Origin: Candidatus Bathyarchaeota archaeon
GTDB lineage: Archaea > Thermoproteota > Bathyarchaeia > TCS64
Length of the DNA stretch: 64,000 bases
Assembly (NCBI GenBank): GCA_043826455.1
Contig: JBDRQD010000046.1
Location: 32,001 to 96,000 of the forward strand
Reading direction: 5' to 3'
Part shown: positions 19,878-47,456 of the stretch, piece after piece
Numbering within the stretch: position 1 is the first letter of the stretch
Layout of the letters: each line of letters opens with the position of its first letter
Translations under genes and position numbers: made by a program
Notes under the pieces: model-generated
What the model was told of the DNA's origin: nothing
The model's database searches: none
Seen by the model: only the letters and a program-made list of their open reading frames with translations

Positions 19878-20489
19878 TTGGACGCCCGCAGACAGGTAGC
19901 CTACGAGGCCGCCCGCCTCCTCTACGACGGAGCCTACGATGAGTACAAGGACGCCAAGGAGGTCGCAGCCACCAGCCTGGGAGTGAGAAGCATACCCAGC
20001 AACTACGAGGTCGCAGAGCAGCTGGAACGGGTAGCGGAGGCTGAGGAGGGCTCAGACCGGCTGAGAAGGCTCATGGAGATGAGGATGGTCGCCGTGGAAG
20101 TCATGAAGGCCCTGGGCGACGTGAGCCCCAGGCTCATAGGAAGCGTCTGGAGGGGCACGGCCAGAATGGGCAGCGACGTGGACGTGGTGGTCTACGGCGA
20201 CCACGACCTCGTGGAGTTAACGCTATCAGAGAAATACTCAGTGAAGGAGAAGACCGCCAAGTCATTCATGGTGGAGGGGGCCCCCAGGACCTCCACCCAC
20301 CTCAAACTAGAGGTGGGGGGCTACGACGTGGAGGTGGTGGTGCGCCCCCCCAGGGACGTAGAGGCGTACAGGGATGAGCGGTGCGACATCTACGGTGACT
20401 TTAAGCGCGGCGTGGGGCTGGGGGAGCTGGAAAGACTTATGAAGACTGACCCCCTCCGCAGATTCATCCCAAGGAGGCGGCAGCGTTAA
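19878..20489 (+). CDS. Predicted nucleotidyltransferase-domain protein
   Basis: LIGSVWRG...SDVDV motif, preceded by a helical EAARLLY domain. Confidence 0.85.
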   Translation: MDARRQVAYEAARLLYDGAYDEYKDAKEVAATSLGVRSIPSNYEVAEQLERVAEAEEGSDRLRRLMEMRMVAVEVMKALGDVSPRLIGSVWRGTARMGSDVDVVVYGDHDLVELTLSEKYSVKEKTAKSFMVEGAPRTSTHLKLEVGGYDVEVVVRPPRDVEAYRDERCDIYGDFKRGVGLGELERLMKTDPLRRFIPRRRQR

Positions 20490-21850
20490 AGCCCAAGCTC
20501 TTCGGCTCGTCAGGCATCAGAGGCCTCGCCAACGTGGAGGTCACAATCACGCTAGCCCAGCGGGTGGGGGCCGCCCTGGCCACGGTACACAGCGGCGGAA
20601 CCTTCGTCGTCGGCAGGGACGCCAGGACCACGGGCCCCATGCTGGAGGCCGCCCTCCTCAGCGGCATAGTCTCCGGGGGAGCCGACGCCCTCTCAGTGGG
20701 CATGGTGCCCACGCCGGTGGCGGCCTGGATGATCAAGGAGACGGGCTCCGAGGCCGGCGTCGCCATAACCGCCAGCCACAACCCCCCCGAGTACAACGGC
20801 CTTAAGGTCTTCAACGGGCGGGGCATGAGCCTCACCAACCGGGAGCAACTGGAGCTAGAGGCCGTCCTGGAGAAGGAGGCCTACAGCCTGGCCCGATGGG
20901 ACGAGGTGGGCACAGTGGACCAGGTGGACGCCGTTGAGCCCTACTTGGAGGCCGTCTCCGAAGCCCTAGACGAGCTGGGCGACCGCAAGGTGGCCTGCGA
21001 CCTGTTCAGCGGGGCCACCTGCACCGTGGCGCCTGCCGCCTTCCAGGAGCTGGGCGTGGAGGCAGAGTTCATCAACAGCGTCCCGGACGGGGCCTTCCCG
21101 GCAGGCAACCCCGAGCCGTTACCTGAGTCCCTGGCTCGGCTTGGAAGCTACCTGAAGGCAAGAGACCTAGATCTGGGCTTCGGGTTCGACGGCGACGGCG
21201 ACAGGATGATGCCCGTGGACAGGGGCGGCGTCACGGTTAGCCCGGACAGGGCCCTGGCGGCCTACGCCGGCTACGTGGTCGATCGGAAGGGCGGAGGCAC
21301 CGTGGTGACCCACGTAGGCGCCAGCATGAACGTGGACGACATGGTGGAGGAGGCGGGGGGCACCGTGGTGAGGACACCCGTGGGAGACGCTTTCATTACG
21401 GAGGCCATGGAGAAGCACAGGGCCGTCTTCGGCGGCGAGCCCGTGGGGGCCTGGGTGATGCCCGAGGTCCACATGTGCCCCGACGGGGTGCTCTCGGCCC
21501 TGAAGCTCCTGGAGGCCCTGGAGGACACGGGCCTCAGCCTCAGAAAGTTCGCGGAGAGGGCCCCCGAGTACCCCCTGGACAGGGCCAAGGTGGAGTGCCC
21601 CAACAGGCACAAGCAGAAGGCCATGGAGCTGCTGGCCGAGGAGTACCGGGGCGTCTTCGGTGAGGTCAAGGGCGTCAACACGGTGGACGGTGTGCGCTTG
21701 GAGCTGGAGGAGGGCTGGGTGCTCATCAGGCCCAGCGGCACAGAGCCCCTCATGAGGCTGACCGTGGAGGGCCGGGACTCTAAGAAGGTCCGGGGGCTAA
21801 TGGAAAAAGGTAAGACCCTGGTGAACAAGGTTATAGGGGGTCTGAAGTGA
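20486..21850 (+). CDS. glmM: Phosphoglucosamine mutase / phosphomannomutase
   Basis: KLFGSSGIRG N-terminus begins just after 20486 (upstream of GTG 20534); TASHNP, FDGDGDR, IRPSGTEP; adjacent to the glmU-like gene. The start codon at 20486 would be TTA. Confidence 0.9.
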   Translation, partial: LKPKLFGSSGIRGLANVEVTITLAQRVGAALATVHSGGTFVVGRDARTTGPMLEAALLSGIVSGGADALSVGMVPTPVAAWMIKETGSEAGVAITASHNPPEYNGLKVFNGRGMSLTNREQLELEAVLEKEAYSLARWDEVGTVDQVDAVEPYLEAVSEALDELGDRKVACDLFSGATCTVAPAAFQELGVEAEFINSVPDGAFPAGNPEPLPESLARLGSYLKARDLDLGFGFDGDGDRMMPVDRGGVTVSPDRALAAYAGYVVDRKGGGTVVTHVGASMNVDDMVEEAGGTVVRTPVGDAFITEAMEKHRAVFGGEPVGAWVMPEVHMCPDGVLSALKLLEALEDTGLSLRKFAERAPEYPLDRAKVECPNRHKQKAMELLAEEYRGVFGEVKGVNTVDGVRLELEEGWVLIRPSGTEPLMRLTVEGRDSKKVRGLMEKGKTLVNKVIGGLK

Positions 21851-23115
21851 AGGCAGTCATACTGGCCGCTGGTAAGGGTACCAGGCTTTGGCCGTTGACG
21901 GAGTACACGCCCAAGCCGCTGCTGCCCGTGGGGGGCCGCCCCCTACTAGAATGGATGATCCAGAGGGTCAGAGAGGCGGGCATACATGATGTCCTAATGG
22001 TCACCAACTACCTTGAGGACCAGATCAAGGGCCACTTCGGGGACGGCTCAGGCCACGGCGTCAGGATCAGCTACGCACGCCAGAACGAGATGCTGGGCAC
22101 CGCCGACGCCTTCAACGTAGCCCGGGACTGGGCCGCGGGTGACGAGTTCATGGGGCTCTACGGTGACCACTACCTGGCTGAGGGCACCTTGAAGAAGGTT
22201 ATTGAGGCCCACAGGCCGGGGGAGGTGACTGTCGCGGCCCTGGAGGTGAAAGACCCCAGCCAGTACGGAGCCTTCGCACTAGAGGGAGACCTCGTTAAAC
22301 GGGTGGTGGAGAAGCCCCCCAGGGGCAATGAGCCCAGCAAGCACGCCAACGTGGGCATCTACGTGTTCCCGCCACAGGTCTTCGACTACATCAGCAGGAC
22401 CCAGAAGAGCCCACGGGGCGAACATGAGATCACAGACACCCTGCAGCTCATGATAGACGAGGGCACCACGGTGAGGAAGCACGACCTGGGGCCAGGCGAC
22501 TGGTTGGACATAGGCCTCCCCTGGACACTGCTAGAGGCCAACGAGAGGGCCATGGTGGGCCTGGAGCGCAGGATCGAGGGAACGGTGGAGGAGGGGGCAC
22601 ACATCCACGGCCCCGTCTGGGTCAAGGAGGGGGCCCGCGTCAGGTCAGGCGCCTACATCGAGGGCCCTGTTGTGGTGGGGGAGGGCAGCGACGTGGGACC
22701 CAACTGCTACATCCGGGCAAACACCTGCCTCTGCAGGAACGTCCGGATAGGCAACGCCTGCGAGGTGAAGAACAGCGTAATCATGGACGGCACCCACGCC
22801 GCCCACCTCAGCTACATAGGGGACAGCGTCCTGGGCAAGGGCTGCAATCTGGGGGCCGGCACCATCACCGCCAACCTGCGCTTCGATAAATCGCCCATAG
22901 AGGTGACGGTTAAGGGGGAGCGCCTGGACAGCAGCCGACGGAAGCTGGGGGTCATCATGGGTGACAACGTGCAGACAGGGGTCAACGTGAGCATCCACCC
23001 CGGCGTCGTCATCGGTCCCGACGCCTGGATAGCCCCGGGGCTCATAATCCAGAAGGATGTCCCGGCCAAGGTGATCAAGTTCAGGATACCGGACAATAAG
23101 GAGAAGCAGCGGTAA
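21847..23115 (+). CDS. glmU: Bifunctional sugar-1-phosphate nucleotidyltransferase/acetyltransferase (GlmU-like)
   Basis: ILAAGKGTRLWPLT...PKPL, hexapeptide repeats, HLSYIGDS, GAGTITAN. Confidence 0.92.
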   Translation: MKAVILAAGKGTRLWPLTEYTPKPLLPVGGRPLLEWMIQRVREAGIHDVLMVTNYLEDQIKGHFGDGSGHGVRISYARQNEMLGTADAFNVARDWAAGDEFMGLYGDHYLAEGTLKKVIEAHRPGEVTVAALEVKDPSQYGAFALEGDLVKRVVEKPPRGNEPSKHANVGIYVFPPQVFDYISRTQKSPRGEHEITDTLQLMIDEGTTVRKHDLGPGDWLDIGLPWTLLEANERAMVGLERRIEGTVEEGAHIHGPVWVKEGARVRSGAYIEGPVVVGEGSDVGPNCYIRANTCLCRNVRIGNACEVKNSVIMDGTHAAHLSYIGDSVLGKGCNLGAGTITANLRFDKSPIEVTVKGERLDSSRRKLGVIMGDNVQTGVNVSIHPGVVIGPDAWIAPGLIIQKDVPAKVIKFRIPDNKEKQR

Positions 23116-23161
23116 CCCACCACATTTATTATACTCCAAGCATTTTGAGTGGCTGGACCAG

Positions 23162-23479
23162 ATGGAGCGCGACGATTTAAAGAAAAGGTACCCGGCCCTG
23201 GCCAAGGAGATGAAGGAGGGCAAGGGGAAGGCGGACCTCAGCTTCGAGGTAGAGGCCCCTCAGCCGGACCGCAGGTTCTCGGGCTACGACCCCAACGTTG
23301 TGGACTTCCTCCGAAGGTGCAGTAGCGACCAGGAGGCCCTGGAGATCATCGAGTACATGAGGAAACGAGGCGAGGTCACAGAGAAAGAGGCCGAGACGCT
23401 GTGCACCCAGCTGCAGGAGAAGGGAGTCAGAAGCTTCGGTCCCAAGAAGAAGCCCGGCTACTACGAGAAAGAGGGGTAG
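23162..23479 (+). CDS. DUF2095-like conserved archaeal protein
   Basis: YPALAKE, GYDPNVVDFLRRC, GVRSFGPKK. Confidence 0.82.
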   Translation: MERDDLKKRYPALAKEMKEGKGKADLSFEVEAPQPDRRFSGYDPNVVDFLRRCSSDQEALEIIEYMRKRGEVTEKEAETLCTQLQEKGVRSFGPKKKPGYYEKEG

Positions 23480-23537
23480 CCGGCACAATAAGGTAGGTAC
23501 CCCCGCCTGAATAGATTTGTAGAAATTTTCGGTTAAC

Positions 23538-23944
23538 CGTGTTTTCTGGGTCTCCAGAGTCTAGGACGAGGAGGCGTCTCACCGAGGAAAAAGCATGAAT
23601 CATGAGATGGAATTTTTTTTCCGCCTTATCCCGGCTGGCACGGGATAAGCCACCCAGGAAACTACACGCCAGCGCGTCGGCCCCAGGAATAAGGAGGGGG
23701 TAGAGCAGGTGAACCGGAAACGGCCGCACCACACCAAAAGGGCTCCTAAAACCGGTCCGACGCCGCAAGAATCTTCACAGAAACACGGTCTATTCAGCAC
23801 ATCAGACACGCTGCATCGGAGCCGATGTGAAAAAAGGTAGGGGGTATCACCTAATGACGATTTTCTCTATTATTAAGGGATACCCGCCCCCATGAAACCG
23901 ACACCCGAGGCACCAGCCAAAGAAGAACATAACCCAAATCCTCT
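23538..23944 (-). repeat. Dispersed non-coding element, copy A (full length)
   Basis: Reverse complement is colinear with 48942-49384 across many blocks; contains the hairpin cttatcccg/cgggataag. Confidence 0.88.
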
Positions 23945-23977
23945 TGTAATATAAGCAGGGGTTCCCCACAAGATATT

Positions 23978-24445
23978 ATGTCTGACATAGTCAAGAAGCT
24001 ACAGGAGCAGAAGGAGCTTGAGCTGAGCCACGTCAAGAGCCTGACGCCCTTGGCCAAGAAGACAGGCCACCCCCTAGTGAAGGTGATCCTCCAGTCCGTT
24101 ATCCATGACAGCGGTAAGCACGCCTCCATATGCCAGGCTCTAATAGACGTCAACGCCGGCGAGACGCCTTACAAGCTGGACCTGGACATGGCTAAGGCCG
24201 TGGAGTTGCACCAGAACATCAAGCAGCACATCAGGGTCGAGTCCAAGATGATCACAAGGCTCGAGACCATGGTGAAGGAGGCTAAGGATGACAGAGTCGC
24301 GGAGCTCCTCAGGTTCATGCTGGAGGACGAGAGGAGACACCATAGGCTCCTCACCGGGCTCTCCAACCTCCTGGACAGGGACGAGACCGCCCTGGACGAG
24401 TACATGAAGCTCTTCCAGACCTTCATGATCGTCCCCCCAGAGTAA
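23978..24445 (+). CDS. Ferritin-like (rubrerythrin-type) four-helix protein
   Basis: Duplicated E...DSGKH and E...DERRH motifs. Confidence 0.8.
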   Translation: MSDIVKKLQEQKELELSHVKSLTPLAKKTGHPLVKVILQSVIHDSGKHASICQALIDVNAGETPYKLDLDMAKAVELHQNIKQHIRVESKMITRLETMVKEAKDDRVAELLRFMLEDERRHHRLLTGLSNLLDRDETALDEYMKLFQTFMIVPPE

Positions 24446-25774: not shown

Positions 25775-25780
25775 GTGAAC

Positions 25781-28047: not shown

Positions 28048-28048
28048 C

Positions 28049-30450: not shown

Positions 30451-30909
30451 CTAGTTCTTTCTGCCTGCGACCCAGCCCACGTCCTTGTCGGACTTTATGG
30501 CCGGGTGGCTTGGGTCCACCATGATTACCTCGAACCACTTGTAGCGGCCGTCCTGCCACACCCAGTAGCTGTTAAGCACCTCCATGTTGGGGTACTTCCG
30601 GGCCGCCCTCTCCTCGGCTATGAGCCTCCTGCTCTTGGCCGGCGTGTACTTGGTTACGCCCATCCGTTTCTGCCTGCGCCCCAGCACCGGCCTCAGCTTC
30701 TTGCGGCCGCCCCTGGGCACCCGTGACCTGACCACAACGAAGCCCTTCTTAGCCTTGTAGCCCAGGCTGTGGGCCCTGTCGAGCCTCGTGGGCGTGTCCA
30801 GTCTGACCACTGAGGGCTGCTTGCGCCAGGTTATGGCCCTCTCCCGCATGATGTCTTGAACGTAGCTGTCCTTGGGGCTCTTCCAAGCGTCTCTGAGGTA
30901 CTTGTACAT
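30451..30909 (-). CDS. rpl15e: 50S ribosomal protein L15e (short)
   Basis: [46 protein letters not shown]. Confidence 0.95.
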
Positions 30910-35988: not shown

Positions 35989-36387
35989 CTACTCTACTAC
36001 CAAATATCTCTTCTGGCGCATGTAGAGTACCCTCAAGCCCCTGTCCCTGAGCCGCCTCCTGAGCTCCGAGTCCGTCGTGGCGACCACGTAATTATACTCT
36101 GAGGCGAGCCGGATTAGGGAGTCGTCCACCGTCTCACCCTCCCGGGGCTCGTCCTCGACGACTATGCACCGGGAGGCCAGGGTCAATGCAAAGTCTAGCT
36201 CCCTCTGGAACTTAGGCCCAGCTTCCTCCTTCAGGGACTCCATCTCTCTCAGCACGCCGGAAGTGACTGTTGGCTCCACAAGCTGGTTGAGGGCCCTCTC
36301 CGCCTCTGCGAATATGTCCACGCCGAAACGGATGGGTACCAGTAAAAAGTTGGTGTCGACTAGAACCTTGGCCGGCAACTCAGCCAC
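35989..36387 (-). CDS. PIN-domain protein (Fcf1/Utp24-like)
   Basis: VLVDTNFL, VDD, VATTD; conserved position after aIF2-gamma. Confidence 0.88.
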   Translation of the reverse strand: MAELPAKVLVDTNFLLVPIRFGVDIFAEAERALNQLVEPTVTSGVLREMESLKEEAGPKFQRELDFALTLASRCIVVEDEPREGETVDDSLIRLASEYNYVVATTDSELRRRLRDRGLRVLYMRQKRYLVVE

Positions 36388-37618
36388 TTACGGTCCCTAC
36401 TCCGATGAGCCTCCACCTGCTCCCTATGCGCCTGCTGATGGCGACCCTGTCGCCCGTATCCGCGCATACGGGGATGCTGAGGCTGGCCTCCATGGTGGAC
36501 TTCCTGATGTCTGTGACGTCCCCCATGGTCTTGGCGGTGCCCACGTTCAGTAGAAGCTTCTCACCCTTGGCCACCTTGGCCACCTTCTCCTTCTCCCGGC
36601 TGCCCACCACGTTCTCGAAGAGCTCATAGTCCAATACAAGCTTCTCCAGGACCTCTGGCAGTGTACCCGGTTTGCCCACCAGGCTGCCTACAAGCCCGTC
36701 GCTCTTGGTGATGGAGGGGTCCAGCATGGTACCCACACCCGCCAACCCGCCGGGTACAGCCTCGTCCACCCCCGTGCCGCCGACGTGGAGGCTGGTTATC
36801 TCTGTGAGAAGCTCCCGCATCTTGATCCTGTTCTTCTGCCGCGTAGGCAGGCCTGGCCTGATCTCCACTTCGTCCCCCATATTGAAGTTGCCCTGGGTTA
36901 TGCTCCCCCCCAGGACGCCTCCAACGATTTCCTCGACGGCTGTGCCCGGCTTGTTGACGTCGAAGCTTCTGATGATGTACATCCTGGGCGGCAGGTCTGG
37001 GTCCCTCTCAGGCGTGGGCAGGTACTGCTCCATAGCCTGGATGAGGAGGTCTATGTTGATCTCCTGCTGGGCCGAGACCGGGATGATGGGGGCGCCATCG
37101 GCGATGCTGCCCTTGACGAAGGCCTTGATCTGGTCATAGTTCTTCAGGGAGTCTTCCCTGGACACCAAGTCGATCTTGTTCTGGACTATGATGAGGTTCC
37201 GGAGGCCCACGGCCTCTATGGCGGCCAGGTGCTCCCGGGTCTGGGGCTGGGGGCACTGCTCGTTGGCCGCGATGACCAGTATGGCGCCGTCCATCACGGC
37301 GGCCCCGCTGAGCATTGTGGCCATGAGTATCTCGTGGCCGGGAGCGTCCACGAAGCTCACGGTCCGCTGAAGCTCGGCGTCCCCGCCGCAGGCGGGGCAC
37401 TTCTCGGACACGCAGTAGCACTGGGGCTCGTCGCAGTTGGGGCACTTGTAGATGGCCGCGTCGGCGTAGCCCAGCTTGATGGTGATGCCTCGCTTGAGCT
37501 CCTCGCTGTGACGGCTGGCCCACTGCCCCGTGAGGGCCTGGACTAGGGTGGTCTTGCCGTGGTCCACGTGGCCTATGGTGCCAATGTTGATCTCCGGTTG
37601 GCGCGGTAGTTTTGCGAT
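36380..37618 (-). CDS. eif2g: Translation initiation factor aIF2 gamma subunit
   Basis: RQPEINIGTIGHVDHGKTT, RGITIKLGYA, DAPGH, QNKID, RWRLIG. The N-terminus extends upstream of GTG 37567 to a non-canonical start (ATC 37618/37624 or ATA 37627). Confidence 0.95.
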   Translation of the reverse strand: MAKLPRQPEINIGTIGHVDHGKTTLVQALTGQWASRHSEELKRGITIKLGYADAAIYKCPNCDEPQCYCVSEKCPACGGDAELQRTVSFVDAPGHEILMATMLSGAAVMDGAILVIAANEQCPQPQTREHLAAIEAVGLRNLIIVQNKIDLVSREDSLKNYDQIKAFVKGSIADGAPIIPVSAQQEINIDLLIQAMEQYLPTPERDPDLPPRMYIIRSFDVNKPGTAVEEIVGGVLGGSITQGNFNMGDEVEIRPGLPTRQKNRIKMRELLTEITSLHVGGTGVDEAVPGGLAGVGTMLDPSITKSDGLVGSLVGKPGTLPEVLEKLVLDYELFENVVGSREKEKVAKVAKGEKLLLNVGTAKTMGDVTDIRKSTMEASLSIPVCADTGDRVAISRRIGSRWRLIGVGTVSG

Positions 37619-37775
37619 GACGATTATCCCCCTGAACTAGTGGATTAGCTACTGCGCCTTATCTTAAATACATATCTCTGAAGGCTAGGAGGGTGGCTAC
37701 TCACCATGTTTTGGTAGTGTTTTGGTAACAGTTATATTAGGTTCTCGCGGACTTGAATCAGACAAGGTGCACCCA

Positions 37776-37979
37776 TTGAGCGAGGACAAGGTACCTGTGA
37801 TGATCCCCCGCAGCCTCTACCAGAAGATCGAGGAGAAGATCGCGGGCACCAGCTTCACCACCGTTGAGGAGTACGTGGCGCTGCTTCTGGAGAACGAGTT
37901 CCCGGAGGAGACGGAGTACAGCGAGGAGGAGGAGGCCCTCATCCGTGAGCGCCTCAGGAAGCTCGGATACATAGAGTGA
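37776..37979 (+). CDS. Small CopG/RHH-like protein with C-terminal ERLRKLGY motif
   Basis: VMIPRSLYQKIEEK...VEEYV; probable TTG start at 37776; directly upstream of sat. Confidence 0.75.
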   Translation: MSEDKVPVMIPRSLYQKIEEKIAGTSFTTVEEYVALLLENEFPEETEYSEEEEALIRERLRKLGYIE

Positions 37980-37984
37980 TCAAG

Positions 37985-39130
37985 ATGCCCAGACCCCACG
38001 GAGGACGCCTAGTGGACAGGCTCACCCCACCAGCCGCTGTTGAAAAGGTGCGCGGCGAAGCCACCGAACTAGTCAAGCTCGACGTGTCCGAGGAGCTGAG
38101 CCTGGACTTTGAGAACATAGCCTTTGGCCTCTACAGCCCCCTTGTGGGGCCCCTTAACCAGGACGAGTACATGACGGTTCTGGCCAAGGGGCGGCTAGCC
38201 AACGACCTGCCCTGGACGATACCCATACTCCTGGACGTGTCGGAGGAAGAGGCGGCAGGGTTCAGTGTAGGCGACAGGCTGTGCTTAGTCTGCGAGGGTG
38301 AGCCCTTCGCGGTCATGGACGTGGAGGAGAAGTACGGCTGGGACAGGAAGACCCACTGTGAGAGGATATACAAGACCACGGACCCGGCTCACCCAGGCGT
38401 AGCCAAGACCCATGAGATGAAGGAGACCCTCGTAGGGGGGTGCGTCGATGTCTACGAGCCCTCACCCGGGAAGTACCCAAAGTACCGCCTGAAGCCTCGG
38501 GAGACCCGGTTCCTGTTCAGGGAGAAGGGGTGGAGGACGGTGGCCGGGTTCCAGACCAGGAACGCGCCCCACATAGGCCACGAGTACGTGCAGAAGACGG
38601 CCCTGGCCTTCGTGGACGGTCTGTTCATCAACCCGCTGATCGGTAAGAAGAAGTCGGGGGATTTCACGGACGAGGTGATACTAGAGACCTACGAGGAGGT
38701 CATCAGGCACTACTTCCTCAGGAACAGCGCCACCATGGTGACCCTGGAGATGGAGATGAGGTACGCGGGCCCCAAGGAGGCCATACACCACGCCATCATC
38801 AGGAAGAACTACGGTTGCAGCCACTTCATAGTGGGCCGCGACCACGCCGGCGTCGGCAACTACTACGGACCCTTCGAGGCCCAGGAGATCTTCGAGGACT
38901 ACCCGGACCTGGGGATCATGCCCATCTTCTTCCGCAACTTCTTCCACTGCAGGAAGTGTGGGGGCCCCCAGAACGACAAGATATGCCCACACGGAGCGGA
39001 GGCCCACGTGAACTACAGCGGCACCAAGATGAGGAGCCTGCTGCTGGAGGGGAAGAGGCCGGACGAGACCATGATGAGGCCCGAGGTGGTGGACGTAATC
39101 CTGCGCCACAAGGAGCCCTTCAACCCCTAA
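37985..39130 (+). CDS. sat: Sulfate adenylyltransferase
   Basis: PHGG, FQTRNAPHIGHE, MRYAGPKEA, VGRDHAGVG. Confidence 0.96.
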   Translation: MPRPHGGRLVDRLTPPAAVEKVRGEATELVKLDVSEELSLDFENIAFGLYSPLVGPLNQDEYMTVLAKGRLANDLPWTIPILLDVSEEEAAGFSVGDRLCLVCEGEPFAVMDVEEKYGWDRKTHCERIYKTTDPAHPGVAKTHEMKETLVGGCVDVYEPSPGKYPKYRLKPRETRFLFREKGWRTVAGFQTRNAPHIGHEYVQKTALAFVDGLFINPLIGKKKSGDFTDEVILETYEEVIRHYFLRNSATMVTLEMEMRYAGPKEAIHHAIIRKNYGCSHFIVGRDHAGVGNYYGPFEAQEIFEDYPDLGIMPIFFRNFFHCRKCGGPQNDKICPHGAEAHVNYSGTKMRSLLLEGKRPDETMMRPEVVDVILRHKEPFNP

Positions 39131-39178
39131 CACCTCACTACCCTTATCAGCGGCCCTGCACCAGCTTGTGGGATCGAG

Positions 39179-39457
39179 ATGGCTAATAAGATAAACGCAT
39201 CCCACATCCTGGTGGAGAAGCAGAGCCAGGCACTGAAGATACTGGAGGAGCTGAAGAAGGGCTCCGACTTCAAGGAGCTGGCAAAGAAGCACAGCACCTG
39301 CCCCAGCGGTAAACGGGGCGGCGACCTGGGCAGCTTCGGCAGGGGCCAGATGGTTAAACCCTTCGAGGACGCGGCCTTCGCGTTGAACGTGGGGGAGACC
39401 ACTAAGGAGCCCGTGAGAACCCAGTTCGGGTACCACATCATCAAGAGAACTGGTTAA
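39179..39457 (+). CDS. ppiC: Parvulin-type peptidyl-prolyl isomerase
   Basis: [27 protein letters not shown]. Confidence 0.94.
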
Positions 39458-40466
39458 AGGACCACAGGAACGCCCTCAGCAGCCTCCTCCAGTCCTTGGG
39501 GATGTCCCTGAAGGCGTCACACTCCAGCCAGCACGTGGGGCACCCGAGGGAGCCTATGATTCTCCGCGCCTCCTCGGCTTTATCTGAGGAGAGTATCTCT
39601 TTTAGGGGCGTCTCGAAGGCGTTGCCCATTAGGTGGTTCATGACTATGCAGGGGTAGACGTCACCGGACGCGTCTATGAACACGGACTCCTCCGCCGCCG
39701 AGCACGCCATGGAGCGGCCCTCAACTAGGAACTCCGTCATTCCCTGTAGGTACGCGAGGCTGGTCAGGCCCTTGAGGGTCCCCTTGTCCTCTTTGACCCA
39801 CGAGGCTAACTGTTTGACCACCGGCTCCATGTCCTCCGCGGTGATCTGCCTGGTCTCGCCCAGGTTCTGGTAGTAGTGCTCGCTGATGTTGACGGGCCTG
39901 ACGCTGAACTCGGCGCCGTACTGGCCTGACATCTTCTGGATTATGGGGGCCTGCTGGTAGTTGGCGGCTGTCAAGGTGAAGCCGGCGGATAGGTGGAGGC
40001 GGGGATACTTTTTCTTAAGCTCCGACAGCAGCCTCAGGGTCGTCATGGCGAGCCTGAAGCTGCCGTCTATGCCTCTCTGGATGTCGTGGGACTCGCCTTC
40101 ACCGTCCAGGGACACGGTCACACCCAGATGTGGCTCGTCGACGTCTACGAGCATCTGCTTGGTCATGTCGGCGACCTTCTCGGGTAGAAGCCCGTTAGTG
40201 GGTATCCAGATCATGCAGTGGGGCAGCGCGTCGTGGACGGCCTCCGCTATCTCTGGCAGGTCGTCCCTGAGGAAAGGCTCACCCCCTGTGAGCTGGATGA
40301 ACCTGAGGTGCCTCAGCGTGGCCCTGTTGTCGTGGAGGAACCGGGTGATCTGTTCGAGGGGCGGGTCCGGGCGGGGGTCCATCTTCCATATGTTGCAGGT
40401 GTTGCAGCGCCCGTTGCACCTGTTGGTGACAGCGAGGTTGCTGATGGCTGTGAGGGGCCTTGACAT
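39441..40466 (-). CDS. Radical SAM/SPASM-domain protein
   Basis: [17 protein letters not shown]...[14 protein letters not shown]. Confidence 0.9.
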
Positions 40467-40548
40467 CGAATCCAATATAATTATATTCGTAGATAAAACT
40501 TAACCGCCAGATATTTACAGTGGGCACACCTTGGATACCTCGACCGAG

Positions 40549-40908
40549 ATGAAGATAACGAGGATAGACCACCTGCACTTCTTCACAACCGACCTGGACG
40601 AGGCCATAGGGTTCTACGAGGACCTGGGCTTCACCCTCAGCCACAGGCTCCAGCACGGGGGAAGGGAGGCGGCTCAGCTTGCAGCGGGCGATGTCACCGT
40701 GGACCTCAACCAGACCAGGGCCGCGGACAACCCTGGGTACAGCCACTTCGCCGTACAGGTGGACGACCTGGACGAGGCGTGTGAGATGCTGAGGGGTAAG
40801 GGCTATGATGTGGACGGCCCGACGTACAACCAGGACACCAAGAGGTGGATTCTAACTGTGAGAGACCCTAACGGGTTCCTGGTACAGATGGTGAAAGCAG
40901 AGAAGTAA
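40549..40908 (+). CDS. VOC/glyoxalase family protein
   Basis: IDHLH, SHFAVQVDD, VRDPNG. Confidence 0.88.
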   Translation: MKITRIDHLHFFTTDLDEAIGFYEDLGFTLSHRLQHGGREAAQLAAGDVTVDLNQTRAADNPGYSHFAVQVDDLDEACEMLRGKGYDVDGPTYNQDTKRWILTVRDPNGFLVQMVKAEK

Positions 40909-40928
40909 AACTACATGGAGAATGAGAT

Positions 40929-41735
40929 ATGAAAGTGTACGTGGTCTGCGACCTGGAGGGCGTCGCAGGAGTGGTTGACTTCAGGAAGCAGTGCATGGAG
41001 GATGGAGCGTATTACCAGCAGGCTATCAAGTTGGCCACCCTTGAACTGAACGCGTTGGTGGAGGGCGCCCTCGAGGGCGGGGCCACGGAGGTCTACGCGT
41101 GGCCGGGCCACGGGGACTTCCCCGGCGGCATCGACGTGGAGCTTCTTCACCCCGAGTGCAAGCTAGTCATGCACGCGGGAGACGGGGGCCCGGCAGGGAT
41201 CGACGGCTCCTTCGACGCCATGATGCTCCACGGGCTCCACGGCATGGCTGGCTCCGAGAACGGCGTCCTGTCCCACAGCTTCATGCCTTTCCTGCGGAAC
41301 GTCTGGCTCAACGAACTGAAGATAGGTGAGATCGCCATGAACATGATCAGCTTCGGTGACCACGGTGTCCCGACGGTCATGGTCACGGGGGACCAGGCAG
41401 CGGTGGACGAGGCAAAGGCCCTTGTCCCCGGCGTCGAGGGAGCGACGGTGAAGTGGGGCCTGGAGGAGAAGCACAGGCTCGGCGCCCTCTCTGTTAGAAG
41501 AGCGGTGTCCCTCTCACCAGTGAAATCTAGGAGCCTGATAAGAAACGTGGCTAAGAGGGCCATGGGGCGGATCGGCGCAGTCGAGCCCTTCACCATGGAG
41601 CCGCCCTACGTGATGAGGGTCGAGTACACGGAAAGCAAGTACGCCGAGGCGGCGGCGATGAACCCCGGAGTGCAGCGGATAGACGAAAACACTGTAACCC
41701 AGACGCGCGGCAGGCTCCAGGAACTCGTATTCTGA
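40929..41735 (+). CDS. D-aminopeptidase (peptidase M55, DppA-like)
   Basis: MKVYVVCDLEGVAGV, GVLSHS, VTGD. Confidence 0.9.
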   Translation: MKVYVVCDLEGVAGVVDFRKQCMEDGAYYQQAIKLATLELNALVEGALEGGATEVYAWPGHGDFPGGIDVELLHPECKLVMHAGDGGPAGIDGSFDAMMLHGLHGMAGSENGVLSHSFMPFLRNVWLNELKIGEIAMNMISFGDHGVPTVMVTGDQAAVDEAKALVPGVEGATVKWGLEEKHRLGALSVRRAVSLSPVKSRSLIRNVAKRAMGRIGAVEPFTMEPPYVMRVEYTESKYAEAAAMNPGVQRIDENTVTQTRGRLQELVF

Positions 41736-41805
41736 TCTGTTTCACACACGACTCCTCACCCCCAGGCTCCGCCCCACTTATAACGGGGCCTCTGAGAGTG
41801 AAGCC

Positions 41806-42474
41806 GTGCAGCGTCAGTTGCTGGAGAGACCGAGGCTGGGCGAGTCAAGCATGCATCTCTTCCTCAAACAAGTGGGGAGACTGTTCCTCCTCAACCAGGG
41901 GTGCCACACCGTGGAGACAGAGGTCAGGCTCAACCAGCTAGGCCTCCAGCGCCTTGACGAGCTGGACAACAAGAAGATAGTGGACGTGCTCGGCGTAAGC
42001 CTCAGGTACAAGCCCATCAACTGCAAGATGGCGCAGGGAGAGAACTGCGAGGACTTCACCCTGCCCCAGCCAAGCCTGTACGATGTAGGTATCAACGTCC
42101 TCAGGGGGGTGGAGGTGAAGGTGAGCAGAGGCGACTTCAGGAACGGGTTCATATGCGCCGGCTGCAACTACAACTACGTCCTCACCCCCACCAGGCTCGT
42201 GTCCCCCAGCCTCCTCCCCAAGGGCGTGGGCCTCATAGAGTACAACAGGTACAAGTTCAGCTGCGAGCCATCAGACGACCCCGAGAGACGCCCATACAGG
42301 ATCAGTGGGCTCAGGGTAGTCCGACGGGCACAGTACAAGGAGCTGCCCCGGTTCCAGGTGGACCACGCCATCGCCGCCGTGGCGGAGAGGAGGCTGTCAG
42401 AGGCTCAGAGGGCCGCACTTGCAGAGGTGCTGACAAGCCTGGACGACCCCGAGCTTGTGTACCAGGCACCCTAA
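41806..42474 (+). CDS. Hypothetical PD-(D/E)xK protein (MmcB-like)
   Basis: VDV...GVEVKVSRGDF...YNYVLTP...LPKGVGLI. Confidence 0.6.
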   Translation: MQRQLLERPRLGESSMHLFLKQVGRLFLLNQGCHTVETEVRLNQLGLQRLDELDNKKIVDVLGVSLRYKPINCKMAQGENCEDFTLPQPSLYDVGINVLRGVEVKVSRGDFRNGFICAGCNYNYVLTPTRLVSPSLLPKGVGLIEYNRYKFSCEPSDDPERRPYRISGLRVVRRAQYKELPRFQVDHAIAAVAERRLSEAQRAALAEVLTSLDDPELVYQAP

Positions 42475-43355
42475 TCGTTGAACAAGCTCTCGATGCCCTT
42501 GAGCCGGTTCCTCAGGGTGACCTCGGTGGTGCCCGCCGCCAACGCGACGTCCTTCTGGATGCGCTTCTCCTGGGTCACAATACAAGCCTTGTAGAGGGCT
42601 GCGGCCGCAAGGCCCCGGGGGTCCTTCCCCGTGAGGCCCTGCCTCTCCCCGGCCGCGACGAGGAGGTCTATGGCGTACCTCTCGGTGCGGGTGTTCAGGT
42701 TCAGCTTGGAGGCGATGCTGGGCACAAACTTTATGGGGTCATCCACGGGCATCCTGAGGCCCAGCTCCCTGATCATGAGCCTGTAGGTGCGCGCCACCTC
42801 GGCGTGGTCCCTAGTGGAAGCCTTCGACAGGTCCTTCAATGGGCGGGGCACCTTCAACTGTCTGCACGCGGCGTACACGCTGGCCGCCACGAAAGCGTCT
42901 ATGCTCCTGCCCCTGAGAAGGTCCTTCTTGAAGGCCCGCCTGTAGATGAGGGCGGCCCTCTCCTTCACGTTCCCGGGCAGGTGGAGCTGGGCTGACAGGC
43001 GGTCCAGCTCGGACATGGCCAGGTTCAGGTTCCTCTGCTGAGTGGTGTCCAGCTTGGCCCTGTTATCGAAACGCCTGAGCCGGGTCATCTTGATGCGGGT
43101 CTCGTCGTCCAGCCGGTTGCCGTTGTGGTCCTTGTCGGCCCTGAAGACAGTGGACAGCCCCTTATCGTAGAGGGCCAGCGACGAGGCGAGCCCGGCCCTG
43201 CTGCGGCTCTGGTTCTCCTGGGTGGTGAAGGCCCTCCACTCGGGGCCGGGGTCCACGATGCTGCTCTGAACCACAAGGCCGCATGCTCCGCAAACCTCCT
43301 CGCCGGTGTCGTAGTCGATTATCAGGTTAGAGCTTCCGCAGCTTGGGCACTTTAT
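42471..43355 (-). CDS. tfb: Transcription initiation factor IIB (TFB)
   Basis: Zn ribbon CPSCGS...CGACG lies upstream of GTG 43274; GPEWRAF, RGRS, GKDPRGLAAA, TEVTLRNR. Start probably ATA 43355 or CTG 43361. Confidence 0.93.
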   Translation of the reverse strand: MKCPSCGSSNLIIDYDTGEEVCGACGLVVQSSIVDPGPEWRAFTTQENQSRSRAGLASSLALYDKGLSTVFRADKDHNGNRLDDETRIKMTRLRRFDNRAKLDTTQQRNLNLAMSELDRLSAQLHLPGNVKERAALIYRRAFKKDLLRGRSIDAFVAASVYAACRQLKVPRPLKDLSKASTRDHAEVARTYRLMIRELGLRMPVDDPIKFVPSIASKLNLNTRTERYAIDLLVAAGERQGLTGKDPRGLAAAALYKACIVTQEKRIQKDVALAAGTTEVTLRNRLKGIESLFND

Positions 43356-43489
43356 ATTCAGTAGCCTCCGAACCTTAGGCTTCGGATGTGGGTTTCACTC
43401 GGAGGACGCGTTATAAGGATGCCGAGTACACCTAGATGCCTCAGATTGATAACCCATATATAGTGGGGCAAGTGTGTTCATCTGTAATC

Positions 43490-44059
43490 ATGAGCGGAAA
43501 GGACCCATTCCCGAAGGAGAAGACGGCCACCAGAACCATACGTATCAACGAGGCCTACGACGAGGCCCTGAGGTACGAGGCCGAGCGCCACGGTGTCAGC
43601 GTCAACACCCTGGTGGACCAGGTGCTGAGGCGGTACTCCCACAGCTACAGGTACTTCGACAACCTGAGCGCCGTCACCATAAGCGGCAAGACCCTGGAGA
43701 GGCTGCTCAGCAACATCCCGAAGGAGAAGATGGGCGAAATGGGCAAGGCCCTGGGGGAGGAGAGGCCCAAGAATCTGCTGCTGCTGAGGGGCCTGCCCCT
43801 GGACTACAACTCGGTGATGTGGTACCTGACCGAGCTCCTGGGGGACACCAGCAACTGGTACAGGGCTACGTACCATCGTAGGGGGGAATACGACATCCTG
43901 CACCTGAGCCACGGCTTGGGAGAGGGGTGGAGCCTCTTCCTGGAGAGGTACGTGACGGCCTTCTTCAGGGAGGTCCTGGGTATAACCCCCGAGACGGAGA
44001 CCCTGGGCGGCTCGGTCACCTTCACCATCGACATATCTAAACTCAAGAAAGGTAAATGA
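43490..44059 (+). CDS. Hypothetical RHH-like DNA-binding protein with C-terminal ligand-binding-like domain
   Basis: TRTIRINE...AERHGVSVNTLVDQVL; divergent from tfb; start placed at ATG 43490. Confidence 0.7.
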   Translation: MSGKDPFPKEKTATRTIRINEAYDEALRYEAERHGVSVNTLVDQVLRRYSHSYRYFDNLSAVTISGKTLERLLSNIPKEKMGEMGKALGEERPKNLLLLRGLPLDYNSVMWYLTELLGDTSNWYRATYHRRGEYDILHLSHGLGEGWSLFLERYVTAFFREVLGITPETETLGGSVTFTIDISKLKKGK

Positions 44060-44178
44060 GCACACGGCTAAAACGACTATCACTAAACAACCACATGGAT
44101 AGATCATCGTTTCATTTCGGTAGGTTTATACTGTCTAATCTCTCATTGTGAATAAAACCACTGAAAGGTGCATAGCGA

Positions 44179-44577
44179 ATGTCATTCAAGATGGCCAGAG
44201 TCGGAGAACTCAAGGAAGGAAGCTACGCCATAATCAACGACGAGCCCAGCCAGATAGTACAGATCCAGAAGAGCAAACCCGGAAAGCACGGGAGCGCCAA
44301 GTTCAGGTGCACCGCCATCAGCATCTTCGACGGCCGGAAACAGAGCTTCGTCAGCAGCGTGGACGCCACAGTCCAGATACCCATGGTCGACAAGAGGAGC
44401 GGCCAGATCGTGAGCATGGGCCCCAGCAGCCTACAGCTCATGGACATGGAGACCTACGACATCAAGGACGTGGCGCTGCCCATCGACGAAGAGATCAAGG
44501 CGAAGCTGGAGGCCGGCAAGGAAGTTGAGTACTGGATCATCATGGACAGGGTAAAGATCCAGCGCGTCAAGAACTGA
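44179..44577 (+). CDS. eif5a: Translation factor aIF5A
   Basis: SKPGKHGSAK hypusine motif. Confidence 0.96.
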   Translation: MSFKMARVGELKEGSYAIINDEPSQIVQIQKSKPGKHGSAKFRCTAISIFDGRKQSFVSSVDATVQIPMVDKRSGQIVSMGPSSLQLMDMETYDIKDVALPIDEEIKAKLEAGKEVEYWIIMDRVKIQRVKN

Positions 44578-44587
44578 AGGCGCACAG

Positions 44588-45526
44588 ATGAAGCGAGTTC
44601 ACCAGATGCGGCTCCGCCCCGGCATGACCGCCCTTGAGCTGGCGGAGGAGATGAAGCGGGCCGGGGTCATAGGGGCCGGACGGGTCGGCAGAGCCGTGGA
44701 CATCGTGGCGGAGATGTTCAGCGACCCCGAGTACACGGTTTTCATCACATTATCCGGGCCCCTGGTGCCCGGTGGACTCAGGCTGGTCTTCAGGGACCTC
44801 ATCAGGGACGGCTACGTGGACGCCGTGGTGACCAACGGCGCCAACATGGTCCACGACATAGTGGAGGCCATGGGCCGGAGCCACCTGGTGGGCACCGTGA
44901 ACGTGGACGACCAGCAGCTCTACGAGGAGGGCTACAATAGAGCCTACGACATCTTCATAGAGAGCCAGGCCTTCGTGGACATCGAGGGCTTCATAGGGGG
45001 AATCCTGGACGACATCCCGGAGGATAAACGCGTTGACACACCCATCCACGGGCTTCTCCGCGAGATAGGGCTCAGGCTCAAAGACCCTGACAGCATCCTA
45101 CACACGGCGGCCGAGAAGAACGTGCCCATATTCAGCCCCGGATTCCTGGACAGCATGCTGGGCATACCCCTGTGGCTCTACAGCCAGAGGAAGAAGCTGA
45201 CCATCAACCCGCTGAAGGACTTCAACCTGCTCTCGGACATGGTTTACGAGGCCAAGAAGTCGGGGGTCATCATCCTGGGCGGGGGCACACCGAAGCACCA
45301 CGCCCAGTACATGCACACCCTGAGGGACGGCCTGGACGCCGCTGTCCAGATAAGCAGCGCCAGGGTGGAGGACGGCAGCCTCAGCGGGGCACCCCTCTCG
45401 GAGTCCATAACGTGGGGGAAGCTCAAGGAGGGCGTCCTGGAGGAGAAGACCTCCACCATCTTCGGGGAGGTCACCACCATATTCCCCCTGATAGTGGCGG
45501 CCGCCCTGGAGAAGATCAGTGGCTAG
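44588..45526 (+). CDS. dys: Deoxyhypusine synthase
   Basis: NMVHD, LGGGTPKH, DGSLSGAP, WGK (catalytic Lys); adjacent to aIF5A. Confidence 0.94.
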   Translation: MKRVHQMRLRPGMTALELAEEMKRAGVIGAGRVGRAVDIVAEMFSDPEYTVFITLSGPLVPGGLRLVFRDLIRDGYVDAVVTNGANMVHDIVEAMGRSHLVGTVNVDDQQLYEEGYNRAYDIFIESQAFVDIEGFIGGILDDIPEDKRVDTPIHGLLREIGLRLKDPDSILHTAAEKNVPIFSPGFLDSMLGIPLWLYSQRKKLTINPLKDFNLLSDMVYEAKKSGVIILGGGTPKHHAQYMHTLRDGLDAAVQISSARVEDGSLSGAPLSESITWGKLKEGVLEEKTSTIFGEVTTIFPLIVAAALEKISG

Positions 45527-46248
45527 ACCAGTAGACGGGTGCCGCCATCCACCTGTAGGGTGGCTCCGGTGATGTATCGTGCCTCATCGGAGGCCAGGAA
45601 AAGGATCGGGCACGCAATGTCCCCAGGCTCCCCTACCCGCTTCAGGAGGGTCCTCTCCGTCCAGTACGTCTTCTCCTCCTCGGTCATACCCCACGTGTCC
45701 ACGGCGCCGGGGGAGACGGCGTTGACTCTCACTGGCGCGAGCTCCCGGGCGAGGCCGCGGGTGAGAGGCGTACCGGCGGCCTTGGTGAGGGTGTACCCCA
45801 CGCCCCCGGCGTCCCAGTCCATTACCACGTTCACTATGCAACCCGCGGCCTCCTTAAGGCGGGGGGCCGCCGCCCTGCTGCACACGATGACGGCCATCAC
45901 GTTCACCTCCATCATCCTTCTCCAGTGGCCCCAGTCGGGCTCCACCAAGCTGAACATGGGGGGAGGATGCACGGCAGCGTTGTTGACGAGGACATTCAGC
46001 CTACCGAGGCGCCGGGCGGCCTCCTCCACCATCTTCTCGGCTTCCGCGGGGCTGCTGAGGTCCGCTTGCAGTGTGAATGCGTTCCTGTGCATCTCGGCTA
46101 TCTTCCTGGCAACGTTCTCAGCGTTCTCTCTTCTGGAGTTGTAGTGGACCGCCACGTCGGCCCCCTTCTCAGCGAAGAGGAGAGCCGTGCGTCCGCCGAT
46201 CCCGCCGCTGGCCCCGGTAATTAGCACGCCCTTGCCTTTGAAGCTCAT
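45523..46248 (-). CDS. Short-chain dehydrogenase/reductase
   Basis: TGASGGIG, LVNNA, YTLTK, VDGG; start ATG 46248. Confidence 0.92.
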   Translation of the reverse strand: MSFKGKGVLITGASGGIGGRTALLFAEKGADVAVHYNSRRENAENVARKIAEMHRNAFTLQADLSSPAEAEKMVEEAARRLGRLNVLVNNAAVHPPPMFSLVEPDWGHWRRMMEVNVMAVIVCSRAAAPRLKEAAGCIVNVVMDWDAGGVGYTLTKAAGTPLTRGLARELAPVRVNAVSPGAVDTWGMTEEEKTYWTERTLLKRVGEPGDIACPILFLASDEARYITGATLQVDGGTRLLV

Positions 46249-46922
46249 CGGCTCACCCCCTCGGCGAAGGGCCTGTACTTCTCCAGGTCGCCCCTCCAGT
46301 CCACCTGGTTGATGGGCCACGTGTAGTGGGCCCGCCTGGGCTTGCAGATGAGTTCAAGGACCTCGAAGCCCTTGAAGAAGTCCACCGTGTTGGCGGCCTG
46401 GGCAACGATGGCCGTGTCCAGGCCCACCCAGCTCCCGGCCATGGCCACCGCCTCCTCCCCAGCCTCCAGATGGTCGGCGTCTGTGGCCTCCAGAACCGCT
46501 GTCATGCATACGTGGACTCCTCCGCAGATGACCTTGTAGAACATCATGCCAAGTTTGCCGGTGTCGATGAGGGGGCTGTGGGCGCCCAGGTTCCAGAAGG
46601 GGTCGGTTCCTCTCACCACGGGCGCCCCAAGCTCACTGATCCTCCTGAGCATCCCCTCGTCAGGTATCCCTATCCTGAGGTCGCCTATGGGGGTGTTCTC
46701 CACCCTCGTGCCGGCCGCGGAGGTGACGACGATGACCCTCTTCCCCTTGAAGACCTTGATGGCTTCAAGGGCGGTCAGCCCGGTCTCCGAGGCCACCACG
46801 GCCCTGTCTATTCCCAGCTCCAAGGCTCGGGCGTAGGCCAGCTCAATGGTCTTACCGGTGTTGATCTCTCCGTGGGCGTCGAAGTAGAAGCAGCCACGGT
46901 TGACGCCTAACTCGCCTCCCAT
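46245..46922 (-). CDS. Conserved archaeal protein, pyruvate-kinase C-terminal-like domain
   Basis: YFDAHGEINT, VVASETGLTA, GLDTA, ELICKP. Confidence 0.8.
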   Translation of the reverse strand: MGGELGVNRGCFYFDAHGEINTGKTIELAYARALELGIDRAVVASETGLTALEAIKVFKGKRVIVVTSAAGTRVENTPIGDLRIGIPDEGMLRRISELGAPVVRGTDPFWNLGAHSPLIDTGKLGMMFYKVICGGVHVCMTAVLEATDADHLEAGEEAVAMAGSWVGLDTAIVAQAANTVDFFKGFEVLELICKPRRAHYTWPINQVDWRGDLEKYRPFAEGVSR

Positions 46923-47015
46923 GGCCTGATTTATCGCGCAGTGAATATAAAACCGTGAAGGTTGGATGAGGCGGGGCTCACGCTCACCTTTTGAGCTGAA
47001 AAAAAGATGATGCTT

Positions 47016-47031
47016 GACCGGTTTTCCGGTC
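47016..47031. terminator. Perfect hairpin, possible terminator or protein site
   Basis: gaccgg-tttt-ccggtc downstream of the minus-strand cupin gene, followed on the minus strand by a T run. Confidence 0.35.
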
Positions 47032-47072
47032 TGCTTCTCATAAAAATGGAAGGGGACAGCGAGGCTCCGGCT

Positions 47073-47456
47073 TCACGTAGCCTTCTTGAAGTGCTCCGGG
47101 CCGACCTTGCCCTTCACATACTTCTTGAACTCGCTGCTGCACAGCTCAGCCACGAAGTCCCCGTCCCACCACTCGAAGGTGGTGATGTCCTCCTCCACCA
47201 CCATCACGTGGGGGACGCCGGCCTCCACCGTCGCCACCTCGCCGACCATGAGAGGCACCTCACGGTACCCTCCGCCCTCGTAGAGCACGTACTTGGCCTT
47301 GCCCGACACCAGCAGCGTGTACTGGCGGTTCGGGTGGATGTGGTTGCCCCTGTAGGAGCCCCTACGGGTCTCCAGCAGCGAGTAGAATCTTCCCTCTCGG
47401 TTGAAGGCGTAGCCTTTGCCTATTCCTTCAAAGGTTCCCCAGTCGTCTAGTTTCAG
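47073..47456 (-). CDS. Cupin-domain protein
   Basis: The open frame continues upstream of GTG 47309 as LKLDDWGTFEG...GSYRGNHIHP, cupin motif 1; motif 2 is GVPH. Probable CTG start at 47456. Confidence 0.7.
   Translation of the reverse strand: MKLDDWGTFEGIGKGYAFNREGRFYSLLETRRGSYRGNHIHPNRQYTLLVSGKAKYVLYEGGGYREVPLMVGEVATVEAGVPHVMVVEEDITTFEWWDGDFVAELCSSEFKKYVKGKVGPEHFKKAT

Follow-up and report, generated by a model that had tools for sequence, protein, structure and literature searches.

Near-cognate codons at the likely starts of four genes in a Bathyarchaeia genome, including an order-wide AUH at the likely start of aIF2γ

Does a group of neighbouring genes that lack ATG, GTG and TTG at their beginnings mean that start-codon selection is relaxed in an archaeal lineage? 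The question is raised by a 64,000-nt stretch of Bathyarchaeia DNA (the window; positions 32001–96000 of contig C46 of genome G000, with coordinates below being window positions unless a contig is named), which encodes phosphoglucosamine mutase (glmM), the γ subunit of initiation factor aIF2 (aIF2γ), a TFB paralogue and a cupin-like protein in frames that are open from a stop codon to a conserved N-terminal motif and contain no ATG, GTG or TTG (canonical codons) in between. The original prediction, that these four genes need near-cognate starts to include their N-terminal motifs, is borne out by the frames and the family models, and the four genes likely begin at such codons. As judged from the sequences of relatives, the four sites differ in kind, with a private change in glmM, genus-wide starts in the TFB paralogue and the cupin, and an order-wide start in aIF2γ. 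The reading preferred here, which is rather more probable than its competitors together but far from certain, is that near-cognate starts are positioned by Shine-Dalgarno (SD) sites and reflect the ordinary low tolerance of archaea instead of a relaxed ribosome, while the weak start of aIF2γ is likely kept by selection.

The source genome, that of an uncultured sediment-type archaeon, has a size of 2.95 Mb in 81 contigs, a G+C content of 57.8%, a completeness of 97.7% and a contamination of 7.2%. The closest named homologues of its aIF2γ are proteins of 'Candidatus Bathyarchaeota/Bathyarchaeia archaeon', and named Bathyarchaeia loci adjoin the order of G000 on a quick tree of aIF2γ; the trees used were this quick tree, with Shimodaira-Hasegawa-like approximate likelihood ratio test (SH-aLRT) support, and a FastTree tree. 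The comparison genomes are G036 and G037 from two other Bathyarchaeia orders, G025 from the sister family and G018 from the same genus. ATH denotes ATC, ATA or ATT (AUH in mRNA).

The likely start of aIF2γ

The aIF2γ gene (36380..37618, minus strand) is present as a single match in G000 and encodes a translation initiation factor of 412 codons from ATC, matched by TIGR03680 (643 bits) and NF003077 (655 bits), both above cut-off. The ATC (37616..37618, minus) is the likely start, as it lies six codons before a QP motif and 8 nt behind the G-rich SD-like site AGGGGGA (37627..37633, minus), while a putative TATA-like box (TATTTAAG; 37663..37670, minus) further upstream would give a short leadered mRNA. 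Position 2 of TIGR03680 corresponds to residue 12, and the first GTG (37565–37567) encodes the valine of the P-loop GHVDHGKT; the only downstream start alternative cuts the P-loop. Contigs of run X12, consulted for RNA support, do not extend over the aIF2γ start.

In 55 genomes of the order, the slot reads ATC in 32, ATA in 12, ATT in six, ATG in two (G080 and G026) and GTC, GCC or GAC in one each (of 64 genomes with a match among 70, 52 were read, eight being left out and four starting within the gene, and three were added from another search). Upstream of the slot the translation differs between genomes (stop, L, Q, T, S, D, E), downstream of it the residues are conserved, and a G-rich SD-like site precedes it in nearly all genomes read. 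In 30 of the 50 ATH genomes the frame contains no canonical codon between the preceding stop and the slot, three of the 50 carry a stop only two codons upstream of the slot, and in 33 no ATG, GTG or TTG occurs in any frame within 21 nt on either side. On the quick tree, the ATH genomes fall into a single clade (54 rows; SH-aLRT 99), from which G026 is excluded; in G036 the slot is TTG. Since internal isoleucine columns are equally conserved, the ATH pattern by itself would suit a conserved residue as well as a start, and it is the upstream stops and the toggling with ATG or TTG in relatives that argue for a start. The order-wide AUH at the likely start of aIF2γ is, on this comparison, real.

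Only one ATG is found among the 51 ATN tips at this slot, while none of the 98 four-fold degenerate columns of the same genes has one G tip or fewer (median 13). As neutral sites have become saturated over the time in which the weak start was kept, the pattern is taken to reflect selection for a dose that is capped and depends on aIF1, and a weak, aIF1-sensitive start of aIF2γ is likely under selection. True autoregulation is less certain than a selected dose cap, because the product of the gene is not the proofreader.

The closest competitor, which is unlikely but still the strongest of those considered, takes the ATH for a frozen accident: AUG would have been lost once in the ancestor, the SD site and promoter would have compensated, and the weak start would be merely tolerated with no regulatory role. 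It agrees with the single origin on the tree and with the fact that one return to ATG and two slot shifts are viable. However, the third base has changed eight times by parsimony and only once to G, while neutral columns have a median of 13 G tips. In addition, 12 genomes are a single transition (ATA to ATG) away from AUG, and an essential gene whose weak start is no more than tolerated should tend to return to it.

Several observations weigh against the preferred reading of this gene. Counted per change, one G among eight changes against an expected share of 0.34 is not significant (p = 0.19), which also speaks for a frozen accident, and the isoleucine columns noted above show that a conserved residue would give the same ATH pattern. 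In 20 of the 50 ATH genomes an in-frame canonical codon does lie upstream, at unconserved distances of 2–33 codons, such that the slot is not forced there, and in G042, G045, G050, G073 and G075 that codon lies only two codons before the slot. In G047, G027 and G028 the slot is no longer ATH, and ATG or ACG stands one codon further. The 30S complex of Sulfolobus solfataricus with aIF1 is reported to bind AUG but not AUU mRNA (PMC4705826; also PMC6237735), and the dependence of an essential gene on a codon rejected by aIF1 in vitro suggests that initiation is somewhat more tolerant here than in Sulfolobus.

Outside the order, 120 aIF2γ loci chosen from about 4,400 matches were inspected, 107 of which are not from Bathyarchaeia; among these 107, a canonical codon is available within 20 codons in 98, further upstream in seven and nowhere in two. 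A near-cognate start was judged likely in three of the 107, in each case behind an SD site: CTG in L131 (2612–3853; Poseidoniales) and in a second marine locus, L156 (5866–7218), and ATA in the Woesearchaeota locus L157 (5803–7248); these would be weak starts acquired independently by the same gene. With three of 107, aIF2γ is not distinguishable from its neighbouring genes in the frequency of odd starts across archaea, which also fits a frozen accident. The remaining 13 loci are from Bathyarchaeia; 11 have a canonical aIF2γ start, while L125 and L153 show the ATH slot.

The original prediction also held that gene callers would truncate such genes, and this is what is found: among the 120 closest database proteins of aIF2γ, 46 begin inside or after the P-loop, the GTP-binding loop, 22 carry long, unconserved extensions, 41 begin near the slot and 11 exactly at it. 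The entries beginning near or at the slot are mostly from NCBI; some pipelines therefore already place the methionine there, without comment. In practical terms, 46 of these 120 entries are cut and 22 overextended, and the same kind of wrong start likely affects a few per cent of archaeal genes. No paper describing a non-AUG start of aIF2γ was found in a literature search that was thin on subscription papers and did not include supplements.

Genome-wide rate of near-cognate starts

If start-codon selection were relaxed in the genus, family or order through changed initiation factors, near-cognate starts would accumulate freely and their rate should exceed that of other archaea. The stop-to-stop frames of G000 were therefore screened against those of 0.8 Mb each of G036 and G037, 0.38 Mb of G025, 0.4 Mb of G018 and 0.72 Mb of mixed archaeal loci, with a gene being testable if a partner of 35–80% identity has a canonical start at the beginning of the alignment. 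A near-cognate start was called automatically as forced in 14 of 641 genes of G000, 12 of 371 of G036, 6 of 380 of G037, 6 of 216 of G025 and 13 of 471 of the archaeal loci. Inspection removed four of the 14 in G000 (a domain fragment, two overlap- or frameshift-like cases and a cimA frameshift gene), four of the 12 in G036 (two shadow frames, one ambiguous case and cimA), three of six in G037, four of six in G025 and 6–8 of the 13 in the archaeal loci. This leaves 10/641 (1.6%) for G000, 8/371 (2.2%) for G036, 3/380 (0.8%) for G037, 2/216 (0.9%) for G025 and 5–7/431 (1.2–1.6%) for non-Bathyarchaeia archaeal loci, with G000 not differing from any control (Fisher p = 0.39–1.0). In a looser first screen, most hits reflected genes that overlap their upstream neighbours in close relatives; it served solely for the choice of five additional cases from G000 and G018.

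A lost start would be detectable in 156/371 (0.42) of the genes of G000, 52/186 (0.28) of G036, 102/193 (0.53) of G037, 45/139 (0.32) of G025 and 150/303 (0.50) of other archaea, which gives detection-corrected rates of about 3.7%, 7.7%, 1.5%, 2.9% and 2.3–3.2%, respectively. At 3.7%, with 55–65 genes estimated in the window, the probability of four or more such genes is 0.15–0.22 (0.01–0.02 at the uncorrected 1.6%); four are therefore unremarkable at the corrected rate and not clearly above chance. The claim that start-codon selection is relaxed in this lineage thus fails on the very comparison that had been chosen beforehand to decide it, as the genome-wide forced rate matches that of other archaea. 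It counts against so firm a statement, and against the preferred reading with it, that the rates rest on small hand-curated counts, different gene sets and control samples of 0.4–0.8 Mb weighted to genes near aIF2γ.

The frequent use of TTG and GTG, which had been taken as a further sign of relaxation, is seen in G000 (ATG/GTG/TTG 57/18/25% at 371 slot-exact starts; 43% non-ATG), but lies between those of two other orders (64% and 42%; G036 35/23/41 and G037 58/5/37; other archaea 69/13/18). Of the proposed SD-driven initiation, the SD part stands: the mean duplex energy at the projected slot in G000 is −7.1 kcal/mol for 10 near-cognate genes and −4.8 kcal/mol for 605 others (p = 0.017), although the excess is not significant in G036 (p = 0.08), a further point against the preferred reading. 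Its lineage-specific relaxation does not stand. The cases collected so far in G000 comprise 15 genes with CTG, ATH, ACG, TTA or CTC at the likely start, CTG being the commonest.

G036 has the lowest share of ATG (35%) and the highest corrected near-cognate rate (loci L063–L082 and L273–L292), with cases including uS9, ArgRS and aEF-2; should one of the lineages be relaxed, G036 would be a stronger candidate than G000. In Methanomassiliicoccales, three genes (L151:1027–1701, L151:1670–2737 and L129:7753–8814) have CTG and GTA/GTC where a relative has ATG.

The initiation machinery, in which oddities had been anticipated, gives a divided picture, with a normal initiator tRNA and anti-SD and an aIF1 carrying two genus-specific substitutions. 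A1-U72 and the G:C pairs of the anticodon stem are identity elements of initiator tRNA, and the initiator tRNA of G000 (C39:12842–12919) contains both; the anti-SD at the 16S end, GGAUCACCUCC, is normal as well, which dismisses an odd tRNA or anti-SD as the cause. aIF1 is found in 37 of 41 genomes, which rules out its loss as the cause, and begins with ATG in G000, which rules out a weak start on aIF1 itself (ATG in 11 of 12 relatives and TTG in one). It keeps the basic loop (RKWGK), whose role is described for Pyrococcus abyssi (PMC6237735). In three genomes of the genus (G000:C57:29073–29288, plus strand; L041 and L042), aIF1 has a tryptophan in KWGKKWT after the basic loop and a methionine for glutamine in LQGD, both absent from ten other Bathyarchaeia. 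The factors aIF2α, aIF2β and aIF5B and three aIF1A genes are present with canonical starts available.

The three aIF1A genes of G000 (C15:92627–92815, C15:50890–51075 and C62:29079–29261) include two divergent copies, and a divergent copy also occurs in G018 (L050). Two or more copies are found in 11 of the 58 genomes of the class with a match, inside and outside the order, and this patchiness led to the rejection of aIF1A duplication as the cause. A second, degenerate copy of the initiator tRNA is found at G000:C48:11304–11379 (minus); its anticodon stem contains mismatches and its T-stem is disrupted, such that it is likely a pseudogene or the scar of an integration.

Relaxation is accordingly given little credence, less than a frozen accident, and for the genus it is largely refuted. 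The 15 non-canonical likely starts, the two changes of aIF1 together with the three aIF1A paralogues, and the retention of a two-mismatch CTC start speak for it. On the other hand, the forced rate is not above the controls and the corrected rate is highest in another order, the ATH start of aIF2γ extends to families whose aIF1 lacks the two genus substitutions, aIF1A is also multi-copy outside the order, and the initiator tRNA and anti-SD are normal.

The other three genes and other routes to an N-terminus

The TFB paralogue (42471..43355, minus, read from ATA; NF001658, PF08271 and PF00382) is one of at least four TFB-like matches in G000. Its Zn-ribbon (PF08271, residues 15–56) lies upstream of the first GTG (43272–43274), which falls behind the Zn-ribbon cysteines, and the likely start is ATA (43353..43355, minus), 9 nt behind the SD site GGAGG (43365..43369, minus). 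The slot, two codons before the first cysteine, reads ATA in seven, ATT in two and ATG in two of 11 genomes (G000 plus 10 from a set of about 19 likely orthologues), making the ATA/ATT start genus-wide, and a stop lies two or three codons upstream of it in G064, G002 and G018. The original prediction offered ATA or CTG for this gene; the CTG, six bases upstream of the ATA, is rejected, as it falls in a different reading frame in G064 and G002.

The cupin-like gene (47073..47462, minus) comprises 129 codons from CTC and is a weak match to PF07883 (Cupin_2; 25.7 bits, below the Pfam cut-off of 27.2), with homologues in 50 of 64 genomes of the family. The likely start is CTC (47460..47462, minus), preceded by the SD site AAGGAGTGA (47470..47478, minus); the first in-frame GTG is codon 52 of the 129, within the Cupin_2 match. 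After the SD site, the slot is CTC in 10 and ATG in one (G043) of 11 genomes (G000 plus 10 chosen from the 49 with a match), with a shift by one codon in G070 and an extra in-frame GTG three codons before CTC in G009. This genus-wide CTC, read as CUC, has two mismatches to AUG. The CTG proposed earlier (47454–47456) is rejected, as the codon varies among CTG, CTA, TTA, TTC and ATA like that of an ordinary hydrophobic residue; among the codons originally named, TTA for glmM, ATC for aIF2γ and ATA for TFB were retained. CTC is also found behind a strong SD at forced starts in G025 and G036 (L107:14582–16105 and L081:4747–6924; aEF-2 of G036).

The glmM gene (full frame 20486..21850, plus strand; TIGR03990 469 bits, cut-off 439) has its likely start at TTA (20486..20488, plus), 8 nt after AGGAGG (20472..20477, plus), which lies within the 3' end of an upstream nucleotidyltransferase-domain gene. 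Position 2 of TIGR03990 corresponds to residue 16 of the stop-to-stop frame, and the first GTG is codon 29. In 25 relatives examined, 24 of them readable, the slot is ATG, GTG or TTG in 23 and CTG in one (G073), with TTG in the two closest and a GAGGCG/GAGACG-type SD site kept. Position 20488 is G in related contigs of runs X2, X4 and X7 and A in X1. As TTA occurs in no relative, it is a private change, confined to this population. The TTA overlaps the TAA stop of the upstream gene (20487–20489) by 4 nt in TTAA, where the closest relatives have TTGA, and the change from TTG to TTA leaves this stop intact; it would likely be tolerated owing to termination-reinitiation and the strong SD. Overlaps of −4 nt are described as driving reinitiation in Haloferax volcanii (PMC10666635). 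The arrangement of glmM resembles that system in its NTGA-type overlap with the upstream stop and differs in reading TTAA with a TTA start, and its translation may be coupled to upstream termination, which would account for glmM alone.

Such an overlap, together with one of the 14 automatic candidates of G000, speaks for the view that these N-termini are reached otherwise, by programmed frameshift starting at an ATG in another frame, reinitiation, intron removal or editing. The candidate is a LeuA/CimA-family gene without an in-frame start (G000:C57:58187–59707, minus, outside the window), which was read as well in L102 (17027–18562), L292 (13265–14800), L373–L386, L388, L389, L391 and L392. 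Across the class, 21 of 23 such 5' ends have ATG (18) or GTG (3) in another frame, followed by 2–3 codons, a conserved TTT ATY and a stop within 0–4 codons, with the enzyme frame at +1 relative to the leader; the two exceptions are canonical-start paralogues. Variation in the leader is synonymous in the leader frame. The leader fits a +1 frameshift at a hungry isoleucine codon, which would make it a candidate isoleucine-sensing, prfB-like element, and TTA as a conserved start of this gene was rejected in favour of it. Compared with the paralogues, the copies with the frameshift have higher scores against the CimA model and lower ones against bacterial LeuA; all remain below the CimA cut-off, and the gene is probably a citramalate synthase. 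One archaeal −1 frameshift case is described in PMC8211752; no paper on a +1 frameshift of LeuA/CimA was found in the literature search, thin as it was on subscription papers.

For the four window genes, another route is nonetheless improbable, more so than relaxation. There is no canonical codon in any frame near the slot in 33 of the 50 aIF2γ 5' ends, no same-strand gene end adjoins the aIF2γ slot in G000, the out-of-frame GTG before the cupin is part of its SD with a frame that is not conserved, and ATG alternates with the near-cognate codons at these slots among relatives.

Sequencing or assembly errors or pseudogenes are the least credible explanation and are refuted for aIF2γ, TFB and the cupin: although the metagenome-assembled genome is 7.2% contaminated and the glmM TTA is backed only by run X1, whose contigs may be the source of the window DNA and hence no independent check, those contigs show no difference from the window over 37388–45342, 45413–47600 and 20380–20640 at a depth of 13.5–15, and the three sites recur with intact frames in 9–50 independent genomes. 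The letters at the four sites are not assembly slips.

In the same window, rpL15e (30451–30909, minus) lacks about 40 residues at its end (152 aa, covering positions 5–154 of the 196 of the model). The short end is shared with L153, while the protein is of full length in G036; it is likely lineage-wide and not an error.

Mechanism and comparison with known systems

The preferred reading of SD-positioned near-cognate starts builds on frames without an in-frame canonical codon, SD sites 8–9 nt away, conservation gene by gene and equal rates. SD pairing would anchor the 30S subunit and place the near-cognate codon in the P site, where the initiator Met-tRNA would pair with two of the three bases of AUH, or with one in the case of CUC; proofreading by aIF1 would reject most of these complexes, as is reported for AUU with factors of S. 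solfataricus (PMC4705826, PMC6237735), and the protein would be made with an initial methionine at a lowered rate. Most such starts, e.g. that of glmM, would be transient and tolerated, while the weak start of aIF2γ would cap the dose of a core subunit of the ternary complex and tie it to the stringency of aIF1. The negative result on rates matters here, as it means that the effect is not a property of the ribosome of this lineage.

A bolder extension, which is possible but doubtful, is that the AUH of aIF2γ acts as an archaeal fidelity sensor, a counterpart of infC or eIF1, in which the strictness of aIF1 would set the supply of ternary complex. The same dial might act on the TFB paralogue (ATA/ATT) and the CUC cupin, and the weak aIF2γ starts would be convergent (CTG in two marine loci and ATA in the Woesearchaeota locus). 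If true, a few per cent of archaeal genes would start outside AUG, GUG and UUG, including at the two-mismatch CUC.

In accounts of standard archaeal initiation, starts are listed as AUG, GUG and UUG (PMC7531240) and aIF1 rejects AUU (PMC4705826). The factors, initiator tRNA and anti-SD of G000 are present and largely standard by these descriptions; in contrast, an essential single-copy gene, aIF2γ, likely begins at AUC, AUA or AUU through a whole Bathyarchaeia order, and a conserved gene likely begins at CUC. CTG has been given as the start of 5% of unannotated small open reading frames of Methanosarcina mazei (PMC11456600).

In eukaryotes, with homologous e/aIF1, e/aIF1A and e/aIF2, autoregulation of eIF1 through an AUG in poor context and near-cognate initiation at CUG, ACG and AUH are described (PMC4705826, PMC6237735). 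The shared idea is that weak starts read out the level of a fidelity factor. The aIF2γ case differs from that description in involving no scanning or Kozak context, in placement by the SD, in the codon itself being weak and in concerning the gene of the γ subunit.

Bacterial infC, encoding IF3, starts at AUU or AUC and is described as autoregulated by IF3 (PMC5499595; PMC4705826). The aIF2γ gene is alike in encoding an initiation factor, in keeping AUH over a wide clade behind an SD site, and in a third base that varies mostly among the letters other than G. IF3, however, is itself the proofreader, whereas aIF2γ is the tRNA carrier and the proofreader, aIF1, starts with ATG, and simple negative self-control therefore does not follow. 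The trait of infC spans a domain, the AUH of aIF2γ one archaeal order, where any feedback would be hypothetical. The likely AUH start of aIF2γ thus offers a natural, testable substrate for the tuning of archaeal start fidelity and for the question of infC-like feedback.

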